A DNA stretch of 64,000 nucleotides from Raillietiella orientalis (lineage: Eukaryota). The stretch is taken from contig JAYWIR010000137.1 in NCBI GenBank assembly GCA_036172245.1, forward strand, positions 1 through 64,000, in the 5' to 3' direction. This document shows, in pieces, positions 104-36,100 of this stretch. The stretch's first letter is position 1; every line of letters begins with the position of its first letter. Made by a program: the position numbers and the translations under genes. The notes under the pieces were generated by a model. It worked only from the letters and a program-made list of their open reading frames with translations, made no database searches and was not told the origin of the DNA.

Positions 104-1722
104 ATGCCCGAGGACGCCGCAAGGACGGCGGAGGGGGGCGAGCGAGACTCGTCCCTCCAGCCCATGGATGTGGGGGCTATCTCCCCCACGGAATCGTCCC
201 CCGCCCCGGCGAGGGCTTGGAGCGCCGTTGAGTCGCAACCATCGCCTGCAGCCGCGGCGGAATTGTCGGCCTATGTAGAGGAGGGGTACAACCCCTCATT
301 GTTCTACAAGGTAGTCAATTTATATTCTTTAGAGAGCGCGCGCGCCTTCTCGAAGGGCATGCGCGTTCTCGATGTGAAAGAGGAGGAGCTCAGCTCTATG
401 ACCATCCGCAGCGGGGGTCAGTACGTTGAGGTCATCTTCAAACATGCAGAGCTGGCCCAACGACTGCTTAAAACCCCCGTTGTGATAGGGACGAGCAGGC
501 TCCTCCCCTCTACGGCGGACTGCAGCATGGTGGTCCGCCTCTTAGGCGAAACCGCGCGAATGCGCAAAGAACAGGTTCGCGCCGCTTTGGAACAGTTCGG
601 AACGGTCCACGCGCAGTGGACGAAAGTAAGTCCTTTCGAGGACTACACGGAGCTGCAACACGGCCTCACTGCTGCGCACGTGACCGTTCGGGAGGGCTGC
701 ACTCTTCCCTACAAACTGGTGGTCGAAGGCGAAACCGTCGACCTCTGGTATGTGGGGAAGCCGATATACTGTGGCTTGTGCAATACGTCGGGCCACCTCA
801 AAACGAGTTGTCCCAGTGTGCAGTACCAAGTATGCGGAACCATGGGACACACGAGGGAGGTGTGCCCTAAAGCAGCAGTGCGGGTGGTTTCCAAGAGAAA
901 CCTTAAAAAACGCGCCCGGCTTCTGCAGAAAAGGCTGGCGGCGAAAGCTGCCGCGAAGGCTGTGCCACCCTCGCGAAAGACCCAGGCCGCACCCGAGACA
1001 CAGGCTACCAACGCCGAAAAAGTTGAGGGAGCCGGCCAGGAGACTGGGTGGCAAGTGGCAACGGCCAAAAAATCAAAGAACAAGAATAGGATGGAAATCG
1101 CCTAAAAACAGAAGAAGAAGGAGCAGGGTAGCGCGATTATTAAAGAGTGAAGCGTCGTAGTCGAACGCGTTCTCGATGTTACCGAACGCTGCCGGAAAGA
1201 ACTCGCCGCTACCGACGACCTCCCTTCTGTTGACACAGTCAACAGCGAGGGGAGCGAGCCGGAGGCGGCGTCCGACATCGACACCACCATGGATGACATA
1301 GCCTTCGCAAGAGCGGCGGAGGAGCTGGCAGCTTCGTTGCAGCCAGAACCCTCAAAGGCTGGCAAAAAGGCCGTAAGGCGTCCGGCCTCCCCTCAGGGGT
1401 CCCCCACTTCCGACCCCGAGGTGGAGGCCGGAAGCGCAGCCCTTGTTTCCACGGCACCGCGCAAGAAATCTGGACGTAAGACCACAAAGACAAGGAAGCT
1501 CGTCTCCCCCGTCGAAGGGGAAGAGACGGCTTCCGCAAGCGAGGGTGCCATGAGCGTGAGAAACTATCGGGACCCGTCGCCCGAGAGACTCCCACGCACG
1601 GACACGGAGGGTTGGAGGGGGTGGAGGCGGAACAGGTGCTTGAGAAGGCCGAAACCCCCATGGACATCCCGCCTGCCTTGCAAGAGGAGGGCTCCCAAAC
1701 ACCTTAATCTTCCCAGCAGCAA
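104..1722 (+). pseudogene. A ORF1 (gag-like nucleic-acid-binding protein)
   Basis: CGLCNTSGHLKTSC and a decayed second knuckle; in-frame stops at 1103 and ~1148, plus a later frameshift. Confidence 0.85.
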
Positions 1723-4700
1723 TGCCGGGAATGTCCTCCCGCCCTCGTCTGCGCATCGCCGTTTGGAACGTGAACGGCATGACAGACGCCGGCAGGAGAC
1801 GAGACATGGCCGCCCTTCTGGAGTCCTACGACCTTGCGCTGCTGCAGGAGATCCACGTGATCTCTACAGAACAAGCGCAAAAGATCAAGCGGATATCCGG
1901 AGAGCGACTATGGTACAGGTGTGGGAGAGCGAAAAGTTGCGGTGTCGCCTACCTGCTTCGGCCAGCCGTCGAGGCCGCGGCTCGGGGCGTGCGGTTCGAC
2001 GATCACGGTCGTATCGGCCAGCTGACTCTCAGGTGGTCCGACTCGATCGTTCTGATCGTCACGAACGTGTACGCACCTAGCGGCAAGGACCTGATGAATA
2101 GGAGGGCAAGGAAAGAGATTTTCCTTGCCCTCCGGCGAGACTGGCTGACCGAAGCAGGCGTGCGGAATGCCCATCTGGCTGCAGGCGATTTCAACGTTCG
2201 CCTGAAACCAGATGGGCAGAATCCCGAGAGTGACCTGATCAACGAGGTGTGCATGGCGGTACACACCTGTAATTCGTTGTCCGGGGCACCGGGGATGGAA
2301 GACAGCATTGACTACGTGTTTCTTGACGAGCACCTGTAACCTCGCGTGGGCAGGCGCGGCAAGTTACCGTGCGAGCTGTCCGACCATCGCCCGCTAGTCC
2401 TCGAGATCCATCCGCGCGACAGGGGATCCCCTCTTCAGCGTGGCGTCTCCCAGGGGACTGGCTGAAGCTCCCGGACACGGCGGAACATCTCCGCACATTC
2501 ATACAGAGCTTCAGGCTGCGGACACTCCAGGATTGGGACCGCATCAAGCGGTCGGTCCAGGAGTTCTGCGACCAGTTTCCTCTGCAACGCCTACCTACGG
2601 GTTTTGGGACCGGGGTCCGTAACGAACGATCCTACCTACAGGCCCGTCGTTACGCCAGGACCCCCGACATCCGCAGGCTGGCGGAATACAAAGCGGGAGC
2701 CGAGAGGCAAGCCTGGCAGTCCGGATCGGCCAGCTTACTGGACGATCAGGGCCAGAAGCACTAGGCACCCGCCCAAATCCGCGGCCTGTCGCGGAGTTAC
2801 TACTTCTCCCTGTATGCCAGGGCACCTCCGCAGAGGAACGCCTCACGACTCCTGCTTCCGGAAGGAGCTCCAGCGATCGGGGAGGAGCAGAGAAAGACCA
2901 TCGACGAGCCTTTCACGATGGACGAGATCCTCTCGGCCATCGGAAAGCTCAAGAGGCGAAAGACTCCAGGGGAGGACGGCCTGCCCGCGGAGTTTTATTA
3001 AACTTTCGCTGCTGAGCTCACCCCCCTGGTACAGCAACTCACCTTGCTAATACGCGAAACAGGTGACGTTCCCGCCTCGTTTCGTTCGGCAAAGGTGCGG
3101 CTCCTCCCTAAGGGACTAGCTCTGAGGAGCATGAACAACTGGCGTCCCATCACAATAGTGAATGCGGACGCCAAGTTGCTGGCTAAGGTTTGGGCAGAGC
3201 GTCTGGGACGGGTTGCCAACATCTTCATCAGCCCGGAACAGACATATGCTGTTCCCGGGCGAAGCATGGAGGCGAACCTGTTCCACGCTTCCACCTGGCT
3301 AGAGCTCCAACATGAAAGGAGCTTGGTGCGCAGCCGGAATTCCGGTGCGTGCGCCGGCAGGGGGTTGGATGGCCGGGTGGGGGAGGGAGCCCTTGCGGTC
3401 GCAATCGACTTGCGGAAAGCATTCGATTGCGTCGATCAGAATCTCCTTCTGGTGCTTCTGTAACGCTTGGGCTTCCCGGCTTCATTAGTGGCCTATCTGC
3501 GCTCCTGCTGGCGCGACGCGCTCATCAATGTTACTTTCAGCGGGCAGACCTTACACGGTGTGCCGGTGCGGCGTAAGGTCCGGCAGGGAGACAGCCTGAT
3601 CCCCTTGCTCTTCAGTAGCTACTTTGAGTTGGTACTGAGAGCGTACAGGGGAACTCTGCCGCACCTGCCGCACGACTGTGCCGGTACGCCGGCCGTTTCA
3701 GCATACGCGGACGACCTTCTGCTGCTGCTCCCTATGTCCATCCCGGCTGCGGCGGTCGAGGAGTTCTTCGACCTGCTGCATCGGGGAACCGGACTTACGG
3801 TGAACAGGGCGAAGTCGTCCGTGATGCCAGTTGGTGCGGCGTGGGCAGGGAAGCAGGACTGGGTCCCTTCGGGGATCCCCACGGTGAGGAACTTCAAGTA
3901 CCTTGGTGTGCCGTTGGGGGACTACTCTTCTGCGAAAGCGTGGTCCGGCTGCTTCCAAAAAGTGGAGACGGCGATCGACCCGTTCCGAGGAGGCAGGTTT
4001 CTCCTGCCTGAACGGGCCGCGGTTTGGAACACGTTCGCGGCTCCTCTCCTCCGCCCCCTGCTTTTTGTTTGCCCCCCCACAGAGAGAATAAAAAAGCGGA
4101 CAAAGGACCTCCTCCGTATCGCCCTTTGAGGCAACGGGAGGGCCCGAGTCCGCTTAAAGGCCTTGTGCGCTCCTCGTCAAGATGATGGTCTGGGGCTTCT
4201 GACGCAGGAGACGCTGGAGCTTGAGCTCCAGTTCCGCTTGTCGGCACGCGTTCCAGAGTTGTGGTGCATCTGTTGGTGCGTCCCTGCAAGTCTTCTTCTC
4301 CAGCAAGCCACCGGCAAGACGGGACTGACGTCGTTTCTTGCACTCCGTCGTCGCGTCAACCGATGCGGACTCCAGCTACGGAGGGTGGCTGCGCTGTATC
4401 GGAAAAACCCAGGATTGCTCACCTGTCGCCCGTTGAACGGTAGTGCCTGGTTGCAGGAAACTGTTGGAACGTGGGGACAGTTCGGCATGCAACGCTCCCA
4501 ACAGGAACAAAGGTTCCTGTTTGGGGGTTACAGAAGTTGCACGCTCTGCGAGATCCTGGAGGATCAAAAGAAAATTGCGTGGGCAGGAAGAACCCCCTTC
4601 GCTGCTGCGCTGCCCTCCCTGATGGAAGATCTTGACAGCGATGTTGCGGCGAAGTGGGTGGTTACAGTAACAATCCGCGGAAAGGAGAAGAAAATAGGAG

Positions 4701-5301
4701 AGTGGAAGACGGGCCAGTTAACAGACGCTACGTCCCCGAGTACGCCTCCCAATGGACTTCTGCGCTGGGGCGCGCTGCTCGATGTTCCCATTGAACATCT
4801 GAAGTGGCTTCCGGTGCTCATGGACACTTCCGCCCTCCCCTTGAAATCGCAGGAGTGGGCTCTTCTGTTGCAGCACTGGGGACTCCTTTGCAACGCCCGC
4901 CGACACCACTGGATCTGGGGAGCGGTGGACCCCAATTGCGTCAGGTGTGGGGAACGGGAGTCCCTCCCCCACCTGCTAGTGGATTGTGTTGCCCTTCGGC
5001 CCCTTTGGTTTCGCTTTGCCGCGGCCATCGGAATCCCCTGGGGCAACCCCAGGGACGCACTGAAAGCCCTCTTCCTTGTTGACGCCCTTCGGCCAGCGGA
5101 CTCGTTAGCAGCTTTGTGCTGCCTACGCGGGATCGTCACCGCTTGGAGCAAGGCTACGGGAGGACAACGCGACCAGTCTGCCATCCAGCCAGCCTCCCAT
5201 TTCCTAGGAGAGCGTCCCGATGGCCGCACCTGGATCCAGGAATACAGAAGGAACTTGCCGGCATCCTGCAAAGGATGCAACGGCCCCACCAGCAACTGTG
5301 A
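1722..5301 (+). pseudogene. A ORF2 (APE-RT-zinc finger), interrupted
   Basis: Consecutive ORF pieces 1722-2339, 2369-2764, 3044-3463, 3467-4129, 4163-5300 carry the motifs in canonical order. Confidence 0.9.
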
Positions 5302-5517
5302 TCCCTTCCCTTACCCTCCCAACTTTTCTTTTCCTTTTTGTTTTGTTTTTTGTTTTTCCCCCTTCCCCCTGCTGCCGTTGTGGACCGTACCGGTCTGCGA
5401 ACCGGTGACCCGGCAGGCTCTGTGTTTCTTCGTGCGTGGCTGGAGCAATGGTCCAGACACCGCACGTCTTTGTAAAAGTTTATTTTCCAATAAACGCCCC
5501 GGCGTAATCCGGGTGAA

Positions 5518-7886
5518 AATCGAATGCTTTGTGCAAATGTTCTGCTAGTGCCAAGGCTCCCAGCCTTTCTCCCGTCCGTCCGCACTGGCGCACGCAGTCG
5601 GTAGAAGGTCTTGCCGCTGTTCGGCTATCCGCCGCAACGCGCTTTTGAAGCTGCCTCCAGGTGCGCGCGAAAAGAAGGTTCGCATCGATGGATCTACCCG
5701 GTACAAAGTAAGACTGCTCCGGGCTTACCAAGGACTCCGCGAATTTCCCTAAGCGCATGACCCAGAGCTACAAAAGCAACTTGACGTCCGTATTCACTAA
5801 TGTGATCAGACTCCAGTTGTTGAGTTGGCGCAGATCCCCTCCTTTCGGAAGGAGACGCACCCTTGCTGAGCGGAAGGAAGAAGGGACATCGCCCGTCACC
5901 CTCATCAGCGTCGAGATTCTAAGAATCAGTGGGGCGAGTTCTGCCGCGAAGGTCTGATAGAACTATGCGGGCAGTCCGTCCTCACCTGGCGTCTTCCGTC
6001 TGTTGAGTCCTGCGATGGCGGAAGAAACTTCCTCCAACGTCAAGGGCTCGTGGAGACGATCGCGTTCCTCCTCGTCGATGCCATGTGCAGCCCGCGGCAA
6101 AAGTAGTTCGGAGAGGACTCTTTCCGTCAGGGAATTAGCGTAGAGCAAGGAGAATTTACGCTTTAGTGCTCGCCGCACTTCGGCAGGAGCCGTGCATTCC
6201 CTGCCTTGGTCGTCGAGCAGAATAGCCGCTCCAGACTGCCAGACCTGGCGCTCGGCCCTCGCCTTGTACTCTGCGAGTTGCCGGACTTCCGCACGTCTCG
6301 AGAAGGTGCAGGCCTGCAGAAATGCTCTGCTATTGGCCACGCCTTCCCCGGAGCCGCGTGGTAGCAGGTGCAGGGGGAACCGGTCGCAAAACTCGCGAAC
6401 CGATCTTTTAAGATGGTTTCAATCTGCGAGTTCCGGGATGACAAAGCCGCGAAGGAACTGGCGAAAATGCTCCGCCGCTTCGGGGTGACTCAGCCAATCC
6501 GCCGGCATCCTCCAAACATTGTTTGGAGGTCCCTTGCTTGGCAGGAGTAGCTCGAACTTCAGCCTATCATGGTCCGATAACGTATACGGCACCCTGCCTC
6601 TCCTTCCCACTCGCAAGAGTAGGTGTTCATCGAGGTAGAGGTGATCCATGCACCTTTCCAGTCCAGGCTTGCCGGCTTCCAAGTTACGCGCGTGCACCCA
6701 CGCGCATTCCTCTTCCATTCGCGACCGTTCCGCCAGAGACCGCGTCTCGTTGGAAAGCATGTGGACGTTGAAGTCCCCTGCGACAAGATGCGCCACTCTG
6801 GCTCCGGAGTTTCTAAGCCATTGGCTCTTCAGCATGTCGAAGAACTCGATTCTTTCGACACGCCGATGAGAGCCGCTCGACGCGAAGACGTTCGTTACGA
6901 CGAGGTCGATTGAATCTGACCATTGGAGTACAAGTTGGTCCATTCGCCCTTCCTGGTCGAATCGAACGCTGCGCACCGCTCCCACCATCTCACTATTGAC
7001 GAGAAAACCGACTCCGCACGATTGTGCAGAATCTTCTTGCCAGTACAAGGTGCCACTTGCGCGCTGTTCGATTTCCGCAACCTCCGCATCGGAGATGTAA
7101 TGCATCTCCTGAAGGATCGCCAAATCGAAATGTCGCAGGGTGTCTGAGACTTCGCGCCTCTTTCCGTTTCAGCGCAGCCCATTTACGTTCCAACAGGCTA
7201 CGCTGAATCGACGAAAAGGGGCGACTTCCTGCATTAAGGCTGGGAAGGTGAGCAAAGATTTCTCGCCTTGTCCGGCTAGTGGTCACGAGACAGAGCGGTC
7301 GATCTCGGAGACTGGACATCTCCATTCGAAGCCGCACTGCTTGTTGCCGGTAGCTCAGAGGTGAGGCTCTTTTCCTTTTCTTTGCTTCCCAGCAACAGTT
7401 CCTCCTCGGCAACCACGCGCTTGCGGGTCTTCGGGAGGCGATTGCGCAATTTCGGGCGGTATTCGCGCTGTGTGCTCTTTCTGTCGGACTCTGGATCAGA
7501 AGCCGACAGTCGAGGGCTTGCCAGGCGCTGCTGCTGTTTCCTGGAATTACGGAAATCGTTCGCTGCCTGTTTCCTAGCGCTTTCTGCAACTGCGGCTGGG
7601 ACTTTCGTCCTTTTAGCCGCAGCAGCAGCTTCCCGCTCCAACCGCGAGAGAACGACTGCGCAGGAGGAAAGAATCGCAATCTTTTTCTGGGAAGGTTTCC
7701 CGGGTTTCTTTCGCCCACTCACCTTCACACAGAGCTGCGAAGACCTTGATGGTTTCTTCCTAATGATCTTTCTCACCTGCATCCAGCCGTCTTCCTTCGC
7801 GTCGCAGTTATCTTTGCCATCCTGAGATGGCGCTGCTTCCACGGATGTAACAGGCGTTGCCTTGGGTGCCTCTTGGAGTGCTGCCT
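5518..7886 (-). mobile_element. Element B, downstream part: ORF1 C-terminus, APE, RT up to HKAFD
   Basis: TAATG stop/start at 7236-7232; LQEMH, GDFN, SDH, PGEDGLP. Ends at ...HLHKAFD, exactly at the 3' end of A. Confidence 0.9.
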
Positions 7887-8189
7887 ACAGGCAGGCGTAA
7901 GCAACTCCTCTAGCCATAGCGAGAGCCTTGCGCATGGGTGGTATCGCCGCCGCTGAACGAAAGGGAGGCGTGATTATTGCTAGTTTAAAACTATACCCAA
8001 TACTCCGCCATGGCAGTGTTTAAAACCACTGCCAAGGGAATTTTTGAGTGCCCTGAGAGTGCAAGTGTTTGAGTGAACGCCAGTGTGGAAAGAGTGCAAC
8101 CGGGGACCATCATCATCATCAGCAGCAGCGCCGAGAAGTCCACGGTGGAAGTCCTGCAGTGGTCCCGAGCAGCCGGAACAGCTGCCAGG

Positions 8190-9980
8190 ATGCAGGCATC
8201 TGGAGTTGGAGGAGTGGTGAGGCCGTCGTCCCCCATGGAAGCCATGGAGGTAACGTGCGGCAACGGCGAGGTGGCATCAGGCATGCCGAGGATCGCGCCC
8301 GCGGCGGGCTTTGCTGCGCCAGCGGCGGCGATGCCAAGGGTCGTGCCCGCGGCGACGACGGCAGAAATCGTGCCCGCGGCGGCGACGCCGAGCATCGTGC
8401 CCGCACCGGGGAAAGTCGCGCCTGCGGCGGCGATGCCGAGGGTGCCGCCCGCGGCGGTAACGGCGGCAACGTCGAGGTTTGCGCCCGCGGCGGCGGCGTT
8501 CCAGGCGGGACCCGCGGGCGCCCACGCGGTGCAGGGAGCGACGCCATCTTGTTCGGCTGCGGCGTCGCAGCCCTTTTTTTATGCGTCGGTGGCGGCTGGA
8601 CAGGCGAGTGTCCACCCACCAAGAAAATTCGGGAAGCCGCTATGCGGTGAAGTCCAAAAGGTGGATCGACCGATCGTGGAGTTAGGGCCGAATGTGAAGC
8701 CCATCATTTTCAAGACTGGGCTGATCAAGTTCAATAATATCAGGGAGGTGTATCTGTCCCTCGATAAAACGGACATGGACTTTGAACGCATTCAGGCGAT
8801 CATTCCATCGAACAACGGGTTCACAGTCTTTACAGACTGTGAAAACATTAGAGAGGGATTGATCCAGAAGGGGATCAATATACAAGTACGGATATTTTGT
8901 GGTATTGGCGAGATGCCATACACAACCGTCTTTTTAAACGGCATCTCCATCCTCACACCGCAATTAGCGGTGTGGAATTACTTGGAGCAGTTTGGGGGAG
9001 TTCTGCACTTTGATTTCCAGAACTTCTCTGGAAACATATTTTCTGGCGACATGATCGCCAACATGAAGTTGAGGGAGGGAGCGGTGATCCCTGGATTGGC
9101 CGTTATTGACGAACAATCCCAGGTAGTGAATGTGCGTTACCATCAACAACCGGTATTCTGCACCGGGTGCAAGCAGTTCTGGCACAGGGCCGGCGCTTGC
9201 CCAACTTGCCGCTGCTTACGCTGCGGCAAAGTAGGACATCAAGTCCGAAACTGCCCGCAGCCGGAGGTGTGCTCCTTCTGCAAGAAACACGGACATGCGA
9301 AATGGAGCTGTCCGGAGTTTGAAAACTGCAGAAGGATTCGAGGTCTCTCTCCCGTGAGAGAGAGAAAGATCAAGGAGGCCGAACAGCCTCAGAAAACAGG
9401 AAGGCCGAAGAAGGTGAAAGAAGCCGTCCCGGTGTCGGCGGACGGCTTCCTAGAAGTGGGAAAGAAGGGAAAGAGGAGGATGCTCGTCAAGGAGCGAGGA
9501 ACTCCTCAAATCCTGGAATCAGCAGAGCAGGAAGGCGAGAAGAAGGAGGTAGCGCAGGAAGGCGCGAAGGAAGAGAAACAGGAAGCCACTAAAGTGTCGC
9601 AGGAAGCTCTGCAGACCAGGGAGGTGTAGGCAACACTGGCGGAGGAGGTCATGGAAGTGCAGAGGGGTCCTCAGCAAGAGAAAATCTTGCAGAAGATCTG
9701 CACTGCACAAGAGAACACCAACCAGGTTGTGGAGGTCGCTGAACGCGATAAGTTAAAGGAAAAGCTTGTCGACGTGAAGGCAAACTTCTGCGCCAAGGTC
9801 GAGATAGAGGCGCTATCTCGAAAATCGATCGCGCGGGCGGAACACTCTACGGAGGAGGCGGAAATTACCGACCTCACAGGTACGGATAGTGAGGCCGGCA
9901 GCGAGAAGCCCGCTGCTTCTTCGACGTCTGGAAGAGCACGCTCTCCCAGACAGAAGAACCTCAGGAAGGCCAAGAAATAG
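8190..9980 (+). pseudogene. X ORF1, three CCHC knuckles, one in-frame TAG (9627)
   Basis: CTGCKQFWHRAGAC, CLRCGKVGHQVRNC, CSFCKKHGHAKWSC; ORFs 8073-9629 and 9651-9980 share one frame. Start codon uncertain. Confidence 0.85.
8290..8500 (+). repeat. Imperfect coding tandem repeat (PAAA / MPRVVPAAT units) in X ORF1
   Basis: Recurrent (G/C)GCCCGCGGCGGCG units. Confidence 0.75.
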
Positions 9981-9993
9981 GTCTTCCCCTTTT

Positions 9994-12900
9994 ATGACCT
10001 CTTCCCTATCGACCGCCAGGAGGCTAAACATCGCCTCCTGGAACGTAAACGGTGTGGTCGACCAGGGAAAAAGACGAAGGATTGTGCGGACCATCGCACA
10101 ACAAGACATCGTGTGCCTGTAGGAGACCCACAGGATTGGTCTCGAGATCAGCCAGCGAATGGAACGGCAATTTAACGGGCAGATGTTCGTCAGCGAAGGA
10201 GAACGGAACACGAAGGGTGTGTTAGTGCTAATAAAAAACCACCTAGCCAGCACTATTCTGGAAGAGTTCTGTCCCCAACCCGGACGAATCATCGGCGTGC
10301 AACTGGCCTGGTCCGCAACTGTTCACCTCATCCTGGTGAACGTGTACGGGCCGCACAGGCTAAAACATCGTTGTGCGGAGGCGCTGCATTCAGCACTCCG
10401 GCAAAAGGACGCCCCTAAGGACGCCGTGATTGCTGCTGGCGATCTCAACATCTTGGATGAGATCATTCATTCAGAAGACGCCAGAGGAAGGACGGCGTAT
10501 CGAAGGCTATCCGACGAGTTCGGACTGGTCTGGCGAACAGCAAGCCACAAGCGGTTCGATCACGTCGTGCACAGCACCGAACTTGGGAACCGCATCCAGG
10601 GGTTTCGCGACACTATGACTACGTTATCCGATCACCCCCTGGTGCGGTTTTCCCTAAGAACGGAGAATCCTTGCCGGAGGCAAGGCACCAGGGCGACGGT
10701 CTTCAGGATGCCCGCCTGGTTCGAAACCCATCCCGGACATCAGGCTGTCCTGGAGGCGATTCTGAGGGCAACAACAATCCGAAGGGTCGCCGATTAGAAC
10801 AACCTAAAACACAGGATACACCTGTTTGCAAACATGCAGTTCGGGGATAGGCGCTTGAGACAAGAGGCGTACCCGGAGCTGAACATCCAAGAACGCTCCC
10901 TCACAAAGTATTTCGATCAGTACGAGAGTCGGTACGTCCTCAATAGCATAAAAGAAAAAATCGGAGTACTCGAGAAGAGAAATCGTGCAACAGATATCTT
11001 CTGCATCCAGTACGACGGCCAAAAGCGACAGTCCTCTGAGGACATCGTGGATGCCTTTCACAGGCATTACACGAAACACTTCAGGCGACAACATCTGTGT
11101 CGCTGTAGTCAGCAGGCCTTCTTGAGCTATCTCGAGAAGAGGTCGGACGACCTCCAGCGGTACAGACTGGAGGAGGAGTTCTCCGAAGAAGAGGTGAAGA
11201 CTGCGTTTGGGCAACTTCGCAAGGACGAGGCTGCGGGCCCTGAGAGTGTACCCATCACGCACTATAAGCGGTGCCTGCACGCCTGCCTGCGCTTGTTCCA
11301 CCAGTTTACTCTCTGCATTCGGGAAGAAGGCAGACTACCTCAGTCCTTCTACGAGAGTCGGATGAGATTGCTGCCGAAAGGAGGCGACTCTACCCAGATC
11401 GCCCAATGGAGGCCAATCTCGATCCTGAACTCCGATGCCAAGTGGTTGGCGAAGATCTGGTCCAACCGCTTAGGCAAGGTTATGTCGAGGCTGATCTATC
11501 CGGTCCAGACATGTGCAGTCCCAGGACGACACATGTCGGACAATGTCAAGTGTGCTCAGGCCACTGTTGGACTCAGTCGATACGTCGGCGAGAACCTGGT
11601 GCTGGTGTTCACTGACATGGAGAAGGCCTTCGACTCCATCGACCACGGGATGCTGCTGAAGGTTCTGGAGAAGCTAGGGCTCACGGAACACTTCAGCAAC
11701 TTCGTGAGGGCGGTACTCCAGAACCAGTACTGCCGGATCAAGATCAACGGCCAGGAGACGGCAGCAATCAGGATGGAACGAGGAGTCCGACAGGGCGACT
11801 CGCTAAGTCGGATGCTGTTCGTCATCTATATGGAGGCGTTGTCGTCCTTTATCGAGAAGAGCGGACGACTGAGCGAAATCAACATCGATGGCCAGCGTCT
11901 TACCCATCTGGCATACGCCGATGATCTACACTTCTTCATCAAAGGAGAGAAAAATCAACGTGAGTTTCTGGATGTGGTGGACCTGATGGAACAGGGCTTG
12001 GGCTTAAAAATCAATTCCCAGAAGAGCCAGCTTTTGCCCGTCGGAATCCTGAACCTCTCCACTCTAACGGGTAGTGGATTCCGTACGGAGGACACGGCCA
12101 AGTACCTGGGAGTCTACATCGGCGACGACTCTGCGTGGAAGCTGCTGTGGAAGGCAATCCTGGGGAAAACGGCCAAGGAAGCAGCCAAGTACACCCAAAC
12201 GGACCTTGGGATGAAGCGAAAGGCCAACATATAGAACGGAGTACTCCTTCCGGAAGTGCTCTTCGGGGCGGCCTTCGCGAGGATGAACAAGGACACTACT
12301 AGGGAGTTCGACAAGCTGCAAAGAAAAACACTGTGGGGCCACTATCGCCCAAGAGTAAGACTGAAACCCCTGTGTTGTCCCAGGGAAGAAGGCGGTTCCG
12401 GGATGAAGTCGCTTGCACATTCCATGGAAATCATGGATACGCGACACATCCTGGACATTGCCACTCACTGGGATGACTGGCCGTATGCGGCGCACAGGGC
12501 CTACGCGTTGTTGCTTAACAACTCGAAAGGCCTGATGACTGCGCTGCTAGGCAAAGTAGGGGAGTGGATAACAATCGACCCGACCTGGAGGAGGAAGCAA
12601 CGGCTGGTGCGGAAGCACCAAATCAAGATCGTGCCGCGAAGCAGGGAACTCTGGGAGGACGAGTCCATCCTGGTGATCCCATGGATGCTTCCTGTCCCGC
12701 CGGACTCGAGAAGTTGGATCTACCAGCGGTCCAGAGTTACCCTACTGCAAATCCAGGAGTGGAGGCGAGGAGGCTACCTACATCAAACTCGTATACTTCG
12801 GTATACAGAGATGATGTTAGGAAGGTTTACCCACAGGACCCGCGAAGTGTGGTTCAACCACAACGACTTCGCATGGTCGAGGGTAACCAGAACAAACCTC

Positions 12901-13512
12901 CGAAGGCTTATTCAAGAAAACGACCGTGACACCAGTGCCCGCCAGGAAGCCACCGAACGCTACGGGAGTGAACGGTTCAACCTGTTAGCGATCGGCACGA
13001 CGCTCTGGAGGAGTGACCTTCCGCCGGGCACCCAGGATGACCTCCTCATGTTTGATCACGGAGGAATCCAGAGTGGGTCCCGATTGCAGCACTTCAAAGG
13101 AAGACGGGAAGACCGAGACTGCGCAGCATGTGGAGACGACGACACGAGACTTCACGTCTTGACGTGTCCCACACTGCTGCATGACTGGCTGATCCTGAAA
13201 AGGATCATAGGACTTACCATCAAGTCCGTTATGGAGATCCTCGCCGGGATGTTTCAGGGGGATGGTTATGTTCCCTGTTACAATCCCATGGTGAAGACGA
13301 CCATCGCCCTCTTCATCACCGCCATCCTTGTGCGGTGGTGGAAAATGAGGAAAGCCAGGAGAGCCGCACCACCGATGGAGATTTTAGAAGGGCTCTTGAA
13401 GAGGGAAATCGGAATCAGGAACTGCGGGAAGATCCACGCCTGGACGTACCGATTCATCCTGAAGAGGATCCAGGACGACGCCCGAGACCATCCAGCTGGA
13501 ATTCCCCCCTGA
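9994..13512 (+). pseudogene. X ORF2 (APE-RT-zinc finger): single frame with three TAG stops
   Basis: SWNVNG, NVYGP, GDLN, SDH, WRPISILNSDAK, DMEKAFD, GVRQGDSLS, YADD, KYLG, CAAC..H..C. Stops at 10120, 10795, 12232. Confidence 0.92.
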
Positions 13513-13619
13513 AAAGCAGAACTCTAGTGCAGCCCAAGGACCCCCAAGTGCAAAATGTTTGTATTGAGTGAATGAAAGTGCGAATGTAAATATTGTATTT
13601 TTATAGAAAAATAAACTTA

Positions 13620-15137
13620 CTCCACCCCTTGTGGTTCTTGGGGAAACTTAGTGATCGCGAGAGGCGCGGCCTCTTCCAGATCGGAGGGTTCGCGCGATGC
13701 CTTTGCGTCCCTTGGGTGCACTGCTGTAGCGGTTGTGCTCGCCCTAGCAGTTTCTTCCTTGGCCACAGTAGGCGCTGCTTCCGCGCGCGAGGACTGCGGG
13801 TTTGCCGGCTGTTTCTTCGCGGCACTCGGAGCCTGGGGCACCTTGGCAGCGGTAGCTTCATACGGCGCGGTGTTCTTTGCCGGCGGGCGCGTTTTTCCCG
13901 TATCGGGCGAACGACCGCATTCCGCGCCGCTCGTGGAGGCCTTGGTACGAGGCTTCGCGGTCGTGATTGCGTCAGTAGGAGGCTTTTTGACCTTCGGCAC
14001 GATGCCTCCTGCATTCAACAATTGGCTGCGAGGTCGCGTAGAAAGGTCGCATTCTTCGCGAGCTTCCTTCGGGTCGATAGCCGGAGGCTTTGCCGCGACG
14101 AGTTTTTTTGTGTTTTTTACCCCTTCTTGGTGGGGGCGAGAAACAGTTTTCTGCACGTGCGTGGTCGCGGTTTTGGCAACGCTTTTCGAAGCTTTGATGT
14201 TTCTTTCTCTCGATTCGCTTCCATTAATTCGCGATGCGAAACGCGATTCGTTCCTGCGCTTTTTGTTTTGTAAAAGGAGCTCCGGGCACGTTACTTTAGT
14301 GTGCCCGTGCTCGTGGCAGTAACGACAAGCGGCCCAGGGACACTTCGTAATGCGGTGACCCTCCTGCCCACATTCCGCGCATACACGCGTTTGCCCGGCA
14401 AACCACAGGCGGACCGCCATTCCATCCACCTGCTGTCGCGTGGGCATTGCACGACGATCCGTCATCGTCACTCGCACTTGCGCGAGCCCGCTGTGGTGGT
14501 TTTCGAACCCTTCATCAGGGTTTGGCAGCCTCCAACGCGCGAGGACGGTAGCGAATTTTTCAAGGGCCTCCACGACCTGGCGGTCCGAAAGGCCCTTACA
14601 CACTCCACTGAGCCAGACAACGAACGACTGGTCCGTTGTGACAGGGAGTATTTTCTTCCCACGAATGAGTAGCGGCGTGTGCAGCAAACGCTGCGTAAGG
14701 TGAGCGTCCTTACTGGAGAACTCCCAGTAGCCGCACCCACTCATGGGCATGATGGACTCCAGTTCGCCTTTTGGAACTCCAATCCGTTGTAGTTGCTGGC
14801 CAAACTCGCGCCCAACCCGCTCAGGCATAAGCACACTTAGCTTATACATGAGTGCAGGCGTGTAGCCATTTGCTACATACGCCTGAAGCTCAGGGTTGTC
14901 GGGCGAAGGTCCCATCGTAGCCGCAAGGGCAGCGACCTGGGCGAATGTCCTCGCCGTCCGCGAGGACAGAGGCTCCTTGCTAGCAGCCGTAGCAACCATC
15001 TCAGGAGCAGGTGGCGTTCCCTTCTTGCGGCTGATGTTCTTCTTTGCTCCCATTGCAGCACAGAAGCACAGCAGAACAAAAACACACAAGAACCAATCTA
15101 CCGCGGAGCGACGCAAAAGCACGTCCGTATGCGACCG
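13620..15137 (-). mobile_element. Element B, 5' part: 5' UTR and ORF1 (ATG 15053)
   Basis: GGACGTGCTTTT at 15126-15115; knuckles CAECGQEGHRITKC and CRYCHEHGHTKVTC. Confidence 0.9.
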
Positions 15138-17290
15138 TCGATGATGCGTGAGACGGGAGAAGACCCGCTTCTTACCACTCAGCAAAGGTGCGGCTCGGGA
15201 GCCTTAGCAGTCGCCGTGGATCTCTGCAAAGCGTTCGACAGCGTGAACCAGAAACTCCTTCTGAAGCGTCTGGGACACCTAGGCCTCCCAACGCACCTCA
15301 TCGCCTACTTGCGCTCCTGCTTGCGCCACGCGTTATGCTGTATCTCTTTAAGCGGGCGCCACGTCTACGGCATTCCCATACGGCAGGGTATCAGGCAGGG
15401 AGACAGCTTAAGCCCCCTGCTCTTCAGCATCTTCTTTGAGTTGGTGCTGAGGGCGTACAGGCTGACCCTGGCCAACCTGCCGAGCTCCTGCCCGGGAACA
15501 CCGGGCGTGGCCGCCTATGCTGACGACTTTCTCCTGCTGCGGCCCATGTCCACCCTGGCGTCCACACTCGAGGACTTCGTCGAGCTTTTTCGTCATGGAG
15601 CAGGCCTGAGCGTCAACAGTACGAAATCAACCGTTGTACCGGTTGGCTCTACGTGGGAGGTGCAGTCCGACTGGATCCGCCAGGGGATCTCCACGGGCGG
15701 GTGCTTGAAGTACCTCGGCGTTCCCATGGGCGCCTTCTGTCCAGCCGAAGCGTGGTCGTTCTGCCTTCACAAGGCCGAGAGTGCTCTAGGTCCGTTCCCT
15801 GGCGGCAGGTTCATCCTGTCGGAACGGGCCTTGGTGTGGAACATTTTCGTTGCCCCCTTCCTCCGTCCCCTCTTTTTTGTTTGTCCCCCTCCCTACTCGG
15901 CTAAGCGCCGGACGCAACGCCTCTTTCGGAACGCCCGGTGGGAACCGGCTAGTTCCAGGATACGCCTGAAGGATTTGGCGGTTCTTAGGCGGGATGCAGG
16001 ATTGGGCACCCTGACGCTGGAGCGGATTGGACTGCTAGTGCTGCTCCGCATGCTGGTACTTCGAGCGCAGCTCTGGACTTCTCCCTGGTGTGCTCCAGCG
16101 CGGCTGCTCCTACGGCGCTGCACGGGTGGCGACGGACTACTTTCGTTGCATCTGCGCACGGAGCGCGCCCAGAGAGGATTCGGCTTCCCTTTGAAGCGGC
16201 TCGCAACGCTTCTGGAGAAGCATGAGTGGATCTCCTGCTGACCGACGAACTTCAACACCTGGAGGCAGGAAGCCTTATCGTCCTGGGCAGCGCAACAGGA
16301 TGTGTCCCGTTTGGAACTCCGTTGCGTGAATTTTTCCCCATACTGTCCAGTGGGGGAGGTGCTGGGAGTCCAGGACCGGTGGACACTAGCCGCTACGCCA
16401 CGTTCCGAAGCACTGTGTGCACTTATGGTGCGAGTTGACAGTGATCTGCCGGCGAGGTGGGAGATCACTTGCTAAATCGCAGGCGAAACCCGACTGCTGG
16501 GCAGCTGGCGGACTTGCGAAGTGGCAGACGCTGCCACACCTCGCCTTCGTGCCAAGGAACTTCTCCGGTGGAGTGAGCTCCTCGGGGTGCCCACCGATGA
16601 ACTTGTGGTCCCTTCTGCGTGTTTGGACGCGACTCTGATCCCTTTTCGGTGAAAACAGGACGCTTTTCTGCTGGTGCATTGGGGTTTGTACAGCAATCAG
16701 CGGGCGCACCTGATTTCCGGGGGAGTTGCGTCCCCAAACTGTGCCCAATGCAGAGCGGTGGAATCGCTTCCGCATTTGCTGTTTGAGTGCGGTGCCCTCC
16801 AAAATCTGTGGCAGCGGCTGTCTTCAGTGCTCCTTCACCCCGGACTCACCGCACTCCATTGGATGCGCCGCTCCTACACGCGTGGCGGTCTTACTCTTGG
16901 AGCGGACGTCGCAATCATTTGCTGCGTCCGTGCCATTGTTGGGGCCCGACACGTATTGCAGATGCAAGCAGTCCCAACATCGGTCGCCGACACCGCAGCC
17001 GGCAACCTGCAAATGGCTGCCGGGTGGCCACATCTTGGAGCAGAAGTGAGGACGGAGATTAGCGGCATTCACCGCCGGTTCTGAGAATAGGAACGGTTAG
17101 ACTGTATACCCCTGTCCCCGCCCTCCCAACCAATTTATTTATTTATTGCCCCACGCCCTTCCGTTCCTAAATCTCAGTGTACCCGGCCTGCGTTCCGGGA
17201 AATCTTCTGCCCATTTTCTGTTCCCCTTGCCTGGAAACACAGTTACCAGTTGATATTAAGAATAAACGTTTCGGCGCAACCAAGTAATAA
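15138..17290 (+). mobile_element. Element C: 3' half of a LINE with an internal RT deletion (same family as J)
   Basis: DLCKAFD, GIRQGDSLSP, YADD, KYLG, CAQC..HL..C; terminal motif 17261-17290. Confidence 0.9.
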
Positions 17291-18490
17291 ACAACGACGC
17301 TGCACTCTTTAGTTATCGCGCTACCCTGCTCTGTCTTTTTATGTTGGTAGGCGATTTTTTTTTCCATCCTCCTCTCCTTCTTTGAATTTTTGGCCGTTGC
17401 CACTTGCCATCCAGTCTGCTGGGCGGCTCCCTCAACCTTTTCAACGTTACTCGCCGGTATCTCGGGTGCCGCCTGCGTCTTGGGCGCGGGAGGCACAGCC
17501 TTCGCGGCAGCTTTCGCCGCCAGCCTTTTCTGCAGAAGCCGGGCGCGTTTTTCAAGGTTTCTCTTGGAAACAATTCGCACTGTTGCATTTGGTCACACCT
17601 TCCTCGTTTGACCCTTTGTGCCGCATACTTGGCACTGCACGTTGGGACACCTCTTTTTAAGGTGGCCCGACGTATTGCAGAAGCCACAGTATTTCGGCTT
17701 CCCCACATACCAGAGGTCGACGGTTTCGCCTTCGACCAACAGTTTGTGGGGAAGAGTGCAGCCCTCCCGAACGGTCACGCGCGCATGCGTGAGACCATGT
17801 TGCAGCCCCGTGTAGTTTTCGAAAAGACTTACTTTCGTCCACTGCGCGTGGACCGTTCCGAACTGTTCCAAAGCGGCGCGAACCTGTTCTTTGCGCATTA
17901 GCGCGGTTTCGCCTAACAGGTGGACCACCATGCTGCGGTCCGCAGTAGTGGGGAGGAGCCTGCGCGTCCCCATCACAACGGGGGTTTTAAGCAGTCGTTG
18001 GGCCAGCTCTGCATGTTTGCAGATGACCTCAAGGTACTGACCCTTGCTGCGGATGGTCATAGCGCTGAGCTCCTCCTCTTTGACATCGAGAGCGCTCATG
18101 CTCTTCGAAAAGGCGCGCACGCTCTCTAAAGAATGAAGGCTGCTCACCTTGTAGAACAATGAGGGGATATATCCCTCCTCTACATAGGCCGACAATTTCG
18201 CCGCGGCTGTAGACGATGGCGCCGACACAACGGCGCTTCACGCCCGCGCTGCAGCGATGACCGATTCTCTCGGGACGGATGCCCCCACCTCCATCGCCTC
18301 TGGGGGTGACGTTGCCGTCGGCCCCTGGCTGTCCTTCGCATCTGAAGGCGGCGATGCCCCTGCCCCCTGCCCATCCCTGGTGGTCGCGTCAGGCATGGCT
18401 GCCTGATCGACCACCGAACCACTCGACGCTAGCACTGGAAGAGACTTGCTTGCACAAGTAGCACCGAGAAAACACGTCCGCCCTAGAGCG
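17289..18490 (-). mobile_element. Element D: 5' UTR and ORF1 N-half, A family
   Basis: ORF1 closely matches A ORF1; GGACGTGTTTT at 18479-18469; ends at TKECSVVV at the 3' end of C. Confidence 0.9.
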
Positions 18491-20579
18491 CACAAGGCCT
18501 TCCATTGCGTAAATCAGGATCTGCTGCTGGAGCTCCTGGAACGTCTCGGTCTCCCAATGCACCTCGTGGAGTATTTGCGCGCTTGCTTGCGCCACGCGCT
18601 CATTTCCATCTCTTTTAGCGGCTGCCACGTGTACCGCGTGCCGGTGCGGCGTGGCATCAGGCAGGGCGACAGCTTATGCCGTTGCTCTCCAGCATCTTCT
18701 TTGAATTGGTGTTGAGGGCGTACATGCTGACGCTGGCCAACCTGCCGAGCTCTTGTCAAGGAACGCCGTCCGTGGCGGCCTATGCTGACGACCTGCTTCT
18801 CCTCTTACCCATGACCACCCCGAAGTCCAGTCTCGAGGATTTCTTCAAGCTGATTCGCCGTGGAGCGGCCATGAGCGTAAACCGGAGCAAGAGCGTGGTC
18901 GTACCAATTGGTGCGGCGTGGGAGGGGCAGTCAGGCAGGATCCTTCTGGGGATCCCGACCGCTTCCTCCATGCAATATCTGCGCGTTTCGCTGAGGAACA
19001 TCAGCCCAGTGGAAGTGTGGTCGGACTGCCTTAGGAAGTCTTCGAATTCCCTGAGCCCGTTCCACAACATCAGGTTCGTCCCGCCAGAGCGGGCCACGAT
19101 ATGGAACACCTTCTTTGCCCCCCTCTTGCTCTTATTGCTTTTTGTTTGCCCGCCCCCCTACTCGGCCAAGCTCCAGGCGCACAGCCTGTTGAGGAACGCT
19201 CTGTGGGGACCGGCGAGCTCCAGGATACGCCTCAATGACTTGGAGGCTCCGCGACGGGATGCTTGCTTAGGTTTCCTGACGCTGGAGAGAATCGAGCTGC
19301 AGGTGCAGCTTCGAATGTTGGCCCTGTGCGCCAACCTTTGAATCATTCCATGGTGCGCTCTTGCATGCCTGCTTCTGCGGCGCTGCACAGGCAGCGATGG
19401 ACTTCTGTCGCTGCGGCCGCACACGGACCGCGCCACGAGAAGCTTCGGTTTCACCTTGAAACCGCTGTACCGGCTCCGGGATGCCCAGGAATGGATCTCC
19501 TGCCGCCCATCGAACTTTCAAGCCTGGCGGCAGGAACCGCTGCATAGCTGTGTAAAGCACCAGGATGTTTCCCTCCTGGAACTTCGTTGCGCTCACCTGT
19601 CCCCGTATTGCACGGTGGACGACGTTTGCAACAGCCAGGAGAAGTGGATTCGCTTGGCCGTCACGCCGCTCGCCTACGCACTGTCAGCCCTCAGAGCAAG
19701 AGATGACAGCTGCGATCCGGCGAGATGGGAGGACGCCTGCACCATCGCAGGAACAACCCGACCTATTGGCGGCTGGTGGAATTGCGAGCTGGCAGATGCC
19801 GCCACGCCTCGCCACATACCGAAATGACTCCTTCGGTGGAGCGAACACTTGAGTGTGTCCCCCGAAGAACTTGTGGTCTCTCCTTCCTGTTTGAACACTT
19901 CTGTGTTCCCCCTTCCGTGGGAGCAGGACGTCATCATGCTGGTGCATTGGGGTTTTCACTCCAACCAGCAAACGAACCGTGTTTGCGGGGGAGTTGTCTC
20001 TTCAAACTGTAAGCGGTGCGGGGAAGTAAATACGCTCCCGCATCTGCTTCTGGAATGCGGTTCCCTTCTAGGACTGTGGCGGAGGCTGGCCTAAGCTCTC
20101 CTGCACCAGTTGGACACCGGGAGGGATTTGATGCGCCGCTTCTTCACGCCAGGCGGCCTGTATTTGGGTGCTGTCGTTGCAACCGTGTGTTGCACCCGCG
20201 CCATCGACAATGCCCACCGAGGGTTGGAGAAGCTGGCCATCCTTCGTCAGCCCACCGGATTAGCCTGCACAAACATGTCTTCGGCTACTGAGTGGACCCA
20301 TCTGCCACAGGGCGTAAGGAGAGAGATCGCCGGCATCCATCGCCGGTTTTGAAAGGAAGGAACGGACTCACCAAAGACCCCTGTCTTCTGCCCTCCATAT
20401 TTTTCTTCTATTTCTTCATAGTAGTGTATTTGTGGTCCCTTCCGTCCCGTTTCGGACTTTCGGCATACCGAGCTGCGTGTCGGGGATGTCACCACATTCG
20501 TCTCTTTTTTTCCTTTTTGTCCAGGAACCCTGTTCCCGGATAGATTACAATAAACGCTTCGGCGCTCCCGGGTTATAAA
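18491..20579 (+). mobile_element. Element E: RT from HKAF(D/H)C onward to the 3' end
   Basis: GIRQGDSL, YADD, CKRC..HL..C; terminal motif 20549-20579. Confidence 0.9.
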
Positions 20580-33191: not shown

Positions 33192-36100
33192 TTATCACCC
33201 GGTCACTTAGGGGCGTTTATTAATAATAATAAACTGGTCAGGGACAATGTCCCCAACCAACAGAACGACAGAGAACATAGAAAAGTTACCGACACGCAGG
33301 CCTGGTAAACAAACCGCTCGCAGCGTGGCGGGAATGAGGGGAAACAAACAAAAATCAAAAACTGGAGGGAAGGGAAAAGGGTTTTTGGTTAGGCTCCGTA
33401 CTCACGGGGATTTAAACGATGAGCACCTCAAATGTTCCGGAGCCTATGGGGACGCGGGTGTAAAAAGAAAATACAAATTTAGTTTATGGAGGGTAGGGCA
33501 ATGATCACCGGGTTGGCCGCTGATGAGGGTGTGTAAACCGGCGGTGTATTGCGGCGAGATTCCTCTTTGTCTCGTCTGTGAAATGAGGCCATCTAGCGGA
33601 TGCTTCCATGTAGAAGGATGCTTTGCTGATTACCTCTTTGTGCTGTCCGTTGATTACCAACGCCTGGCGGACGGAAACTATCGCGCGTATGAAACCGATG
33701 ATTGCAATCCTTGCGCTTACTGAAAGCCCGCTCAGCGTGAAGAATCGTCGCAGCAAGTCTCTTGCGGTGTCCTCGGGATGCAATAGTGCTGTTGCCAGCC
33801 TACGCCACAGTCCTTGTAGGACACCGCAGTCCAGAAGTAGGTGCGGAATCGACTCCGTCGATCCGCACCGAACGCAGTTCGCAGACGCAAGTCCCCCGGA
33901 GTCACGATGCCAACGCTCGTTGCACTGAAAACCCCAGTGAACGAAAAGCAGCACGGCTTGTTTCCAAGCAAGGGGGAGCAGCGAACTGTTTATACACTGT
34001 GGAGGGACTACAAGTTCTTCGGGGGTGACAGGAAGTTCTTCTGCCCACCGGAGGAGTCCCTTTGCAGTAACACGAGGAGTGGCGGCGTCCGCCAACTCAC
34101 TTGTCTTCCAGGTGCCAAGGAGTTTGATTCTTCCCGCTATCGTGCAGGAAACCTCCCACCTCGCCGGTTGGTTACTGTCGTTTCTTGCCCTGAGGGCAGA
34201 CAGCGCTGCGGCAAGAGGCGTGGCAGCCAGGGTAGAAAACTTCACCTCGTCCTGCAGTCCTTCTCCCAAGGATCGTGGAAAAAATTGGCGCAGGGGGCGA
34301 AGATCTTCAGGGCGTATTCCTTGGAACGCCGCCCAGGATTCAACAGACTCCTGCCGCCAAGCTTCAAAGTTCATTGGGCGGCAGGAGATCCAAGAGTGTG
34401 CTTCCAGAAGTGCGGTCAACTGCCGCAATGGAAACCCGAAACCCCGCTTCCTGTATTGAGTGCCCGGCAAAAGCGAGAGAAATCCTCCGCTGCCGGCGCA
34501 TCTCCGCAGGAGAATGCGAGCTGGCACGCACAGGGGGGATGTCCATAGCTGGGCACACAGTGCCAGCAGTCGGAACTGCACCTGCAGTCCGATTCGCTCC
34601 ATTGTCACGATACCCAAACCAGCATCCCGACGCGGAGCTGACAAATCTTTTTGCGGATCCTGGATCTCGCCGGACCCCAGAGAGCGTTTCTGAGCAGGCG
34701 CTTAGCCCGCTGTTTTGCCGCATAGGGGGGGTCCAAAACAAAAAACAGGGGACGGAGGAGGGGGGCCACAAAGGTGTTCCAAATAGTCGCCCGTTCCTGC
34801 AAGGTAAACTTGCCGTTAAAGAACGGGCTGATGGCCAACTCTGCTTTCTGAAGACAGTCCGCCCACGCTTCGGCTGCGCCGAAAGCGCCCAACGGAACGC
34901 CAAGGTACTTAAAGTACCCGCCCGTGGGGATCCCCAGGCGGATCCAGGCGGACTGCCCCTCCCACGACGTACCCACAGGAACGACCACGCTCTTCTCTCT
35001 GTTCACGCTCACGCCCGCTCCCCGACGAATCAGGTCGAAGAAATCCTCGACACTGGACGCCGGGGTGGACATGGGGAGCAGAAGAAGCAGGTCATCAGCG
35101 TAGGCGGTCACGGCAGGCGTTCCCGGGCAGGAGCTTGGCAAGTGAGACAGCGTCAGCCTGTATGCGCTTAGCACCAACTCAAAGAAGATGCTGAAGAGCA
35201 ACGGGTTTAGGCTGTCGCCCTGTCGGATGCCCCTACGAACGGGAATACCATACACGCGGCAGCCGCTAAAAGTGATGCAGGTTAGCGCGTGGCGCCAGCA
35301 CGCCCGCAAATACAGCAGGAGTTGCGCCGGGAACCCAAGGCGTTCTATAAGCTCCAAAAGAAGCTTCTGGTTTACGCAGTCGAACGCCTTGTGGAGATCG
35401 ACCGCGACCGCCAAGGCACCTGGCGTTCCCTCCTGCCGTCGGCGTCTGTTCTTTTTGCTTGCGGCAGTGACTTTCGCAGCAGCCTGGCTTTGCTGCGCCA
35501 CAACTTCCTGCAGCTGCATCCATGTACGCGCGAAAAGGATGTTCGCCTCCATGGATCGTCCCGGAACCGCGTAGGTTTGTTCCGGGCTCACCACAGATTT
35601 TGCGATTCTTCCTAACCGCGCGACTTACAGCTTGGAAGACAACTTGACGTCCGAGTTCACCAAGGTGATCGGACGCCAGTTGTTAAGTTGGCGCAAGTCT
35701 CCGCCTTTCGGCAGGAGACGCACCTTCGCTGAGCGGAAGGAATCAGGGACATTCCCGGATTCACTCATCAGCGTCGCGAGTTTCAGCATCAAAGGAATTA
35801 GCTTAACTGCAAAGCACTGATAAAACTCTGCAGGGAGCCCATCCTCGCCTGGCGCCTTTCGTCTCTTCAGCCCAGCGATGGCGGACGAAAATTCATCCGC
35901 CGTGAAGGGCTCGTCGAGACGTTCGCGTTCCTCCTCGCCGACAACACGAGCATCCTGAGACAGGAGTATCTCAGAAAGAATATCCTCCGTCGGGGATTCC
36001 GCGTAGAGCGAGGAGTAGTAGCGTCTCACAATGCGGCGTACTTCGACTGGGGCCGAACATTCCTGGCCTTTGTCGTCCAACAGGCATGCTGCTCCGGACT

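Follow-up and report, generated by a model that had tools for sequence, protein, structure and literature searches.

A LINE family of Raillietiella orientalis inserted at conserved reverse transcriptase codons of its sister LINE families

Introduction

The first 64,000 nucleotides of contig JAYWIR010000137.1 (C137:1-64000, hereafter the window), from the 210-Mb, 491-contig eukaryotic assembly GCA_036172245.1 of Raillietiella orientalis, form a nest of related retrotransposons without long terminal repeats (non-LTR retrotransposons), as seen by self-comparison and a motif map. One of them, a long interspersed nuclear element (LINE) termed family A, ends directly at the reverse transcriptase (RT) motif A of another element, host B. 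A second piece, D, begins at the same motif of a further element, host E. These two junctions raise the question of whether family A takes the conserved RT codons of other LINE families as its landing site, and how it would reach them. A preliminary description of the window had read the junctions as one site with a target site duplication (TSD) of about 14-15 bp in two hosts. It had likened the choice of site to that of homing endonucleases, at a motif that the host cannot easily change. Taken as a whole, the observations are best explained by a site-specific LINE with an apurinic/apyrimidinic endonuclease (APE) that moves by target-primed reverse transcription (TPRT), has RT codons as its target and carries a 14-nt copy of that target along, and we regard this explanation as highly probable.

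Target site of family A

The copy of A in the window (164-5519) is 93% and D is 89% identical to a full-length A copy at locus L050 (loci are cited by L numbers), and the two thus belong to one family. Across the genome, the exact 20-nt 3' end of A occurs 137 times, and TCGAAYGCYTTDYG follows directly in 63 of these 137 places. By base composition the chance of this sequence after any one A end is about 9e-8 and reversed-pattern controls gave 0, so the association between A ends and the site encoding K-A-F-D (KAFD) is not a matter of chance.

The 3' junctions were read from the 40 best matches to the window copy and from the first 100 of the 137 exact-end places, with loci identical over 300 bp merged. 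By place, 44 listed and 4 unlisted 5' ends as well as 37 3' ends were left untaken, some of them possibly among loci taken otherwise. This sample yielded 109 distinct 3' junctions, 90 on target and 19 off target. The 90 consist of 68 KAFD and 12 tandem junctions assigned by script, together with 10 of the 29 remaining 'other' junctions recognised by eye as KAFD-type (window, L063, L112, L122, L146, L153, L157, L177, L182, L183). On the 5' side, 78 distinct junctions were read (69 direct, 9 tandem), each of them on target. Every on-target junction falls at a single nucleotide of RT motif A with the element antisense to its host, and insertions in sense orientation number 0 among the 109 3' junctions. 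The duplication is 14 bp long and corresponds to the H-K-A-F-D codons; the 15th base proposed earlier is ambiguous, being complementary to the terminal A of the element.

The two junctions of the preliminary description are indeed present where it saw them, and the single site and duplication recur well beyond two hosts, in about ten sister families that form separate clusters at 84% identity. Reading both TSD copies of complete insertions, the check that it had named, gave KAFD-type 14-mers on both sides in 19 of 19 complete 5.5-kb copies, although the copy at L184 is degraded. Its claim that the target lies in other families needs softening to a bias, as A has also inserted into itself (L159, L188, L194). 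Tandems likewise arise where A has re-inserted into the site that older A copies leave at their 5' end. The insertion disrupts the host open reading frame (ORF) and is not spliced out, unlike an intron or intein.

Identity of family A

Judged by its sequence, A is an APE-type, sequence-specific non-LTR retrotransposon of L1/Tx1-like kind. The window copy carries stops and frameshifts, and an intact A ORF2 of 1215 aa was found at L045. All catalytic APE residues are kept in A (N16, E43, Y117, D156, N158, D197, D221, H222), and the predicted fold of the domain matches the L1 endonuclease (EN) over 212 aligned residues (pLDDT 91, Z 24.8, rmsd 2.4). Moreover, the fixed 3' end, the many 5'-truncated copies and the TSDs of 12-16 bp form the signature of TPRT. 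The single open ORF2 in the window, which belongs to sister family F (41758-45405), contains the Pfam domains Exo_endo_phos and RVT_1, and its best match in the PDB is human L1 ORF2p (E 5e-46) versus 2e-14 for R2, as expected of the L1 group. Pfam gave no RNase H domain in this ORF2, which has a C-terminal CCHC motif. Protein searches gave no relatives above 31% identity, the homologs being 20-31% identical and mostly unnamed. A metagenome scan returned distant LINEs alone (65 loci, best long segments 22-31% identical). Target-specific LINEs were defined in PMC4494074 by more than 20% of flanks being of one type, and in A the target type makes up 90/109 of the 3' and 78/78 of the 5' flanks.

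Other identities were considered. A homing endonuclease gene in an intron or intein is ruled out by the 5.5-kb antisense insertion, the 14-bp duplication and the interrupted host ORF, even though the target does lie, as for such genes, within a conserved part of the host gene (99th percentile of 1160 windows). For an HDV-like ribozyme at the A 5' junction, 0 of 57 regions fitted a simple home-made descriptor, which a divergent form could escape. Rfam gave three weak, unrelated matches and nothing relevant on four A 5' loci.

Recognised core and endonuclease

The nick lies in the last Asp codon of KAFD, TTC GA/C TGC (slash, nick), within the F-D-C codons of RT motif A, and in the window copy it would fall between 5519 and 5520. 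According to an alignment with L1, the nicked codon comes directly after the gatekeeper F605. The first Asp, which is catalytic in L1 (D600; PMC10830420), has its equivalent outside the 14-bp duplication and is missing from the off-target sites.

A TSD accompanies 18 of the off-target copies, all of which are 5'-truncated, with duplications again of 12-16 bp; the nineteenth off-target junction (L037) gave none. These 18 copies share a short core, GSMS/TCGAR (G 14/18, T 17/18, C 18/18, G 16/18, A 16/18), which identifies the F-D-C codons as the recognised core. In 16 of the 18 the flank pairs have no similarity to any repeat sequence sampled, and 2 of the 18 sites lie in repeats. The genome has 4401 occurrences of RCAGTCGAA but 649 intact KAFD sites. 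The majority of such cores thus lie outside KAFD, and yet the exact RCAG/TCGAA was used by only 2 of the 18 off-target copies. The short core is thus sufficient for the nick, and KAFD sites are favoured well beyond it.

The stretch between the G-D-F-N (GDFN) motif and the next catalytic Asp spans 41-43 residues in all five sister APE domains measured and 59-64 residues in 18 of the 19 outside homologs measured, the one remaining value of 35 being a regex mismatch and 18 further rows being unmeasured. About 20 residues are missing there, for example in the APE domain at L045:3872-4600 (minus strand). In L1 EN, a strand and hairpin within this stretch affect target choice (PMC1950540), and the loss, which spans them, may therefore be relevant to target specificity. 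Sister APE domains are 47-59% identical to that of A, yet have different targets.

Site conservation and escape of hosts

Conservation was compared between host clusters at the nucleotide level over 1160 seven-codon windows of ORF2. The A site stands at the 99th percentile, and the APE G-D-F-N site used by sister family G at the 94th. For the remaining sister families, the sites that were mapped lie between the 23rd and 62nd. A universal rule of conserved sites was rejected, since most sister families use sites of ordinary conservation.

Synonymous change at the nicked codon is associated with fewer insertions. Sites with GAT make up 213 of 649 intact but 8 of 69 occupied sites (p=2e-4), where position -1 of the occupied sites may be donor-derived. 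All 13 truncated on-target copies, read by eye, have G at -1 (p=0.007), and the base A at -1 was found in 0 of the 18 off-target sites. The site of family A itself is of the GAT type, accounting for 35 of the first 100 GAT sites listed, or about 11% of intact sites; A served as host in 2 of about 77 direct 3' junctions (p~0.004, n=78) and in 1 of 69 5' junctions (p~0.002). Furthermore, the distant family Z was host in 0 of the 109 3' junctions, though it keeps KAFD. Z is a distant LINE at about 8035-13646 (plus strand) of the window, and 9 of 11 Z-type 3' ends share one common flank, which may be a target of its own or a duplicated composite.

Hosts can partly escape A. The preliminary description had argued that the motif holds a catalytic Asp which the host cannot easily change; this argument goes too far, as GAT sites are under-hit, and that Asp lies outside the duplication. 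Its comparison with homing endonucleases survives in the high conservation of the site and falters over the GAT escape, the ordinary sites of the sisters, and a host ORF that is destroyed without splicing. Most plausibly, conservation mainly gives A a wide host range and does not make escape impossible. The homing analogy holds in part, for where A lands and not for how it persists.

A 5' target copy that probably travels with the element

In 18 of 19 full-length insertions, the 5' and 3' copies of the TSD are not identical. Across hosts, base 13 of the TSD shows linkage to base +1 of the element (15:2 versus 5:47, p=3e-9), as it does within a subset of host families (p=9e-6). Additionally, an A-to-C variant at base 5, which would encode KAVD, is found in 19 of 83 5' junctions and in 4 intact hosts against 649. 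Among direct junctions it occurs in 8 of 69 at the 5' side and in 0 of 68 at the 3' side. In 13 of 18 full-length copies both flanks belong to a single host family, and host-type sequence resumes directly beyond the 14-mer in the concordant copies. Truncated on-target copies such as L153, L162, L173 and L179 have a TSD of host type on either side. The 5' TSD of full-length copies thus appears to be partly inherited with the element. The 5' copy of L194 is a mosaic, which, like host-type copies at L050 and L082, is as expected from heteroduplex repair.

In alignment folding, the target-derived 14-mer pairs with the first 12 nt of A in a 7-bp stem (e.g. window 18478-18500, minus strand), possibly by chance. 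The two most variable element positions in this stem are C/T opposite G.

Candidate start in the host

A motif resembling the downstream promoter element (DPE), GGACGTG, lies a few to a dozen nucleotides inside the element and is common to the 5' ends of the sister families. In 65 of the 69 direct A 5' junctions, a CA dinucleotide stands 27 nt before it and 2 nt before the nick. The spacing described for promoters with an initiator (Inr) and a DPE is +28 to +32 (PMC4748587). When 11 5'-end clusters that differ in target were compared, YA at the +28 offset reached a weight of 5.3 versus at most 2.6 at 22 other offsets (p=0.003; p=0.015 without A).

Targets of the sister families

The 3' ends of sister families were found by BLAST in small samples, from loci chosen for A and possibly including duplicated composites. 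Family C lies in the ORF1 region of A in 12 of 12 cases, one of them tandem and one in another family. In 8 of 8 3' junctions, one of them tandem, family G lies in sense orientation at the catalytic G-D-F-N codons of the APE. E/E2 was mapped to the APE G-G-R-L codons in 6 of 9 cases, the K-type to the APE in 3 of 4, family H to the linker in 3 of 4, and family F to the G-F-G codons of the linker in 3 mapped cases plus tandems. At least one further family uses the D-A-K-L codons of the RT.

Several side observations accompany this survey. Targeting is reciprocal between C and A: C occurs at one A ORF1 site (window 17291, 24850, 55260) and A in C-type hosts (L048, L094). The 5' and 3' ends of further families lie antisense at D-A-K-L of A and F (window 62362, minus strand; L036, L049, L151, L186). 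The 3' ends of E, E2, F, H and K recur at APE and linker sites (window 20579, 60349, 29849, 41543, 50188, 52184, 55818), and they carry an AATAAA-like signal and a stem-loop without poly(A).

Layout of the window

The features that bear on the nest are collected in Table 1. The chimeric 5' end at the start of the contig is also present in L129, and from its sequence the window copy of A is a recombinant within its 5' region. Local duplications of element ends with their flanks, at 91% identity, were seen at 48872-50861 / 50868-52855 and 57442-57555 / 59889-60004. Elsewhere, A ends and target sites are grouped in local blocks (C1:8.01-8.07 Mb, C5:2.32-2.58 Mb, C13:4.35-4.47 Mb, many contig ends and small contigs), a grouping that may recall Zepp clusters.

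Table 1. Features of the LINE nest in the window (positions of the 64,000-nt stretch)
Feature	Position	Strand	Evidence
5' end of a different sister family fused to A (chimeric 5' end), at contig start	1..163	+	no match to A reference before 164
Family A LINE: CCHC knuckles in ORF1; APE, RT and C-terminal CCHC in ORF2	164..5519	+	motif landmarks
RT motif A of A itself, GAT TGC variant (under-hit)	3407..3432	+	sequence, motif landmarks
A 3' end: AATAAA, stem-loop CCCGG/CCGGG (5498-5513), fixed TGAAAA, no poly(A)	5489..5519	+	sequence; 137 exact 20-nt ends in genome
3' TSD copy, H-K-A-F-D(2 nt) codons of host B	5520..5533	-	same register in 90/109 junctions
Host B from its APE to RT motif A (upstream part)	5520..7280	-	motif landmarks; 72% to G
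D, 5' 1.2 kb of an A-family copy, interrupted in ORF1 by a family C insertion	17291..18490	-	89% to A reference 1-1198; C 3' junction
DPE-like GGACGTG, common to sister-family 5' ends	18473..18479	-	sequence; putative function
5' TSD copy of D, H-K-A-F-(H) codons	18491..18504	+	element-type base 13; R-K-A-F-D in copies of host E
Host E from RT motif A to its 3' end (downstream part)	18491..20579	+	motif landmarks; sister 3'-end survey
Candidate transcription start: CA dinucleotide on the antisense strand of the host, 27 nt ahead of the DPE-like motif	18506..18507	-	CA there in 65/69 non-tandem A 5' junctions
Sister family G, full length, sense insertion at APE G-D-F-N codons, 8-9 bp TSD	33192..39100	-	both junctions within window
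Sister family F, full length, open ORF2 (41758-45405), frequent A host; own site at linker G-F-G codons	41543..47210	-	Pfam RVT_1 + Exo_endo_phos

Proposed mechanism and alternatives

Family A would mobilise by TPRT, with the first nick made by its APE domain and the second 14 nt away, a step that is very likely. The full-length RNA probably includes the donor copy of the 14-nt target, whose cDNA end would anneal to the 14-nt overhang. With equal probability, this annealing would let full-length integration be completed at homologous KAFD sites and would often leave a 5' TSD copy of donor type. It is more tentative, at somewhat less than an even chance, that the RNA starts at the CA lying 2 nt before the nick on the antisense strand of the host, placed by the DPE-like GGACGTG at +28, which would make the target part of the promoter.

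Several observations weigh against this account. Of the 109 3' junctions, 19 are off target, and the A-B junction recurs about nine times as copies of one event, so that the counts overstate independent insertions; these are fewer than the junctions and at least as many as the host families. Sampling by likeness to the window copy or by the exact end motif leaves older subfamilies under-represented. Truncated on-target copies at L138, L151 and L171 have poorly matching TSDs. As to the inherited 14-mer, L050 and L082 retain a host-type 5' copy, 4 of 18 copies lack an intact host reference, and L158 seems to be a recombinant, which means that ectopic recombination takes place. Mismatches to the common element types total 8 in the 5' copies versus 26 in the 3' copies, a count biased because these 5' junctions also served to define the types, though that bias does not touch the linkage and base-5 tests. 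As to the start, only 8 of 18 off-target nicks have a CA, and a universal +28 rule was rejected, failing in at least four sister clusters including G and C.

Could the endonuclease nick any GSMS/TCGAR, with purifying selection or chromatin access leaving the long copies in nests of transposable elements? The truncated copies at core-only sites, mostly in flanks unlike any sampled repeat, and the abundance of RCAGTCGAA in the genome speak for such an origin. Within the nests, however, one of the many TCGA sites is used almost exclusively, and only two off-target sites lie in repeats. Cores outside KAFD dominate, and yet few off-target copies use the exact one; moreover, the element-linked 5' TSD alleles are left unexplained. 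We consider this origin unlikely. Still less likely is that gene conversion or ectopic recombination between A copies, and not the RNA, brought in the element-type 5' TSD. The discordant flanks of L158, the chimeric 5' end of the window copy and the many copies lying close together would suit it, but conversion would act at both ends, whereas the base-5 variant is confined to the 5' side of direct junctions. Host-type sequence right beyond the 14-mer and the host-type TSDs of those truncated on-target copies also run counter to it.

Composites do recur (L043/L047, L055/L066/L067, window blocks 15138-17773 and 24358-26992), which might suggest that one or a few ancient A insertions were amplified with their hosts by segmental duplication, without recurrent targeting. 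The diversity of hosts refutes this, with the same nucleotide used in about ten separate families; truncated copies have differing 5' breakpoints and TSDs of their own, and the 12 tandem re-insertions add to this. The probability of such an origin is very close to nil. The argument made for inteins and group I introns in PMC2814812 would have A persist because hosts cannot mutate the site. The ranks of the A and G sites favour it. Against it stand the deficit of GAT sites and the absence of A at -1 off target, the sparing of Z despite its KAFD, the ordinary ranks of the other sister sites, and an insertion that kills the host copy. On balance this strict logic seems rather improbable for family A, though less so than the short-core origin.

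Relation to known systems

Tx1-clade LINEs that insert into transposons are described in PMC4494074: Tx1L in Tx1D, Tx1-Mar in Mariner-N4_AMi, Tx1-8_Crp and Tx1-4_AMi in LTR retrotransposons, and Tx1-9_AMi in Harbinger. Like them, A is an APE-RT LINE with a fixed site in another mobile element and tandems around the TSD. Unlike them, it has as target the RT codons of about ten sister LINE families, whereas the targets listed in that paper are DNA transposons, LTR elements, RNA genes and microsatellites. R1 of arthropods, in 28S rDNA, is described with a 14-bp TSD, tandems formed by insertion in the 5' TSD of older copies, and off-target copies; for the melanogaster group, annealing of target sequence that lies upstream of the site and is carried by the RNA is proposed to give precise 5' junctions (PMC2718515). 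A resembles it in being APE-type, in its 14-bp TSD, tandems and off-target copies, and in the proposed RNA-borne target sequence. It differs in that R1, by the same account, targets rDNA, pairs RNA sequence upstream of the site and has a 9-bp deletion, whereas A would carry the TSD itself.

The GC-rich clusters of nested LINEs in a eukaryote recall Zepp of Coccomyxa (PMC3446292). As described there, Zepp is one family nesting in clusters with no nucleotide-exact target given, whereas many families here have defined sites in each other. Nested group II introns of Methanosarcina acetivorans (PMC4424553) similarly show site-specific homing into relatives and a perpetual landing site, but those are described as prokaryotic, RNA-guided ribozymes that can splice out, while A, as a LINE, is targeted by protein and inactivates the host. 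At the 5' end, insect LINE promoters with Inr and DPE and Pr77 of L1Tc (PMC4748587) resemble A in having a CGTG core close to the 5' end, at the distance of a DPE (~+28 to +32) from the candidate start. As described there, those elements start at their own 5' end, unlike A, whose candidate start lies 16 nt outside the element, in the target.

Literature searches found no paper on a LINE that targets the RT codons of sister LINEs, with Repbase Reports, subscription papers and supplements outside the search. Transposon-targeting Tx1 LINEs, tandems with a 14-bp TSD, nested LINE clusters and group II introns in relatives are already known; the use of sister-LINE RT codons as target appears new.

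Significance

The conserved RT codons of an element's own relatives constitute a new class of target for site-specific LINEs, and explain how dense LINE nests build themselves. Close APE paralogs with different targets form a natural series for the change of endonuclease specificity, which bears on engineered site-specific insertion. Furthermore, the alleles at the junctions offer a genetic approach to 5' joining, a step that is poorly understood, and the synonymous GAC/GAT differences between hosts make target escape and self-avoidance directly testable. Jointly, the observations might describe a guild closed on itself, with at least eight sister LINE families whose APE lacks about 20 residues at the specificity hairpin and which each have a nucleotide-exact site in the coding sequence of the others, such as A in C and C in A, and in which the antisense strand of the A host supplies the start, the RNA carries the 14-nt site and this copy guides full-length completion; such a reading is possible, though we lean against it. 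If it were true, the TSD would be a heritable part of the element, and only the on-target copies would be fertile.

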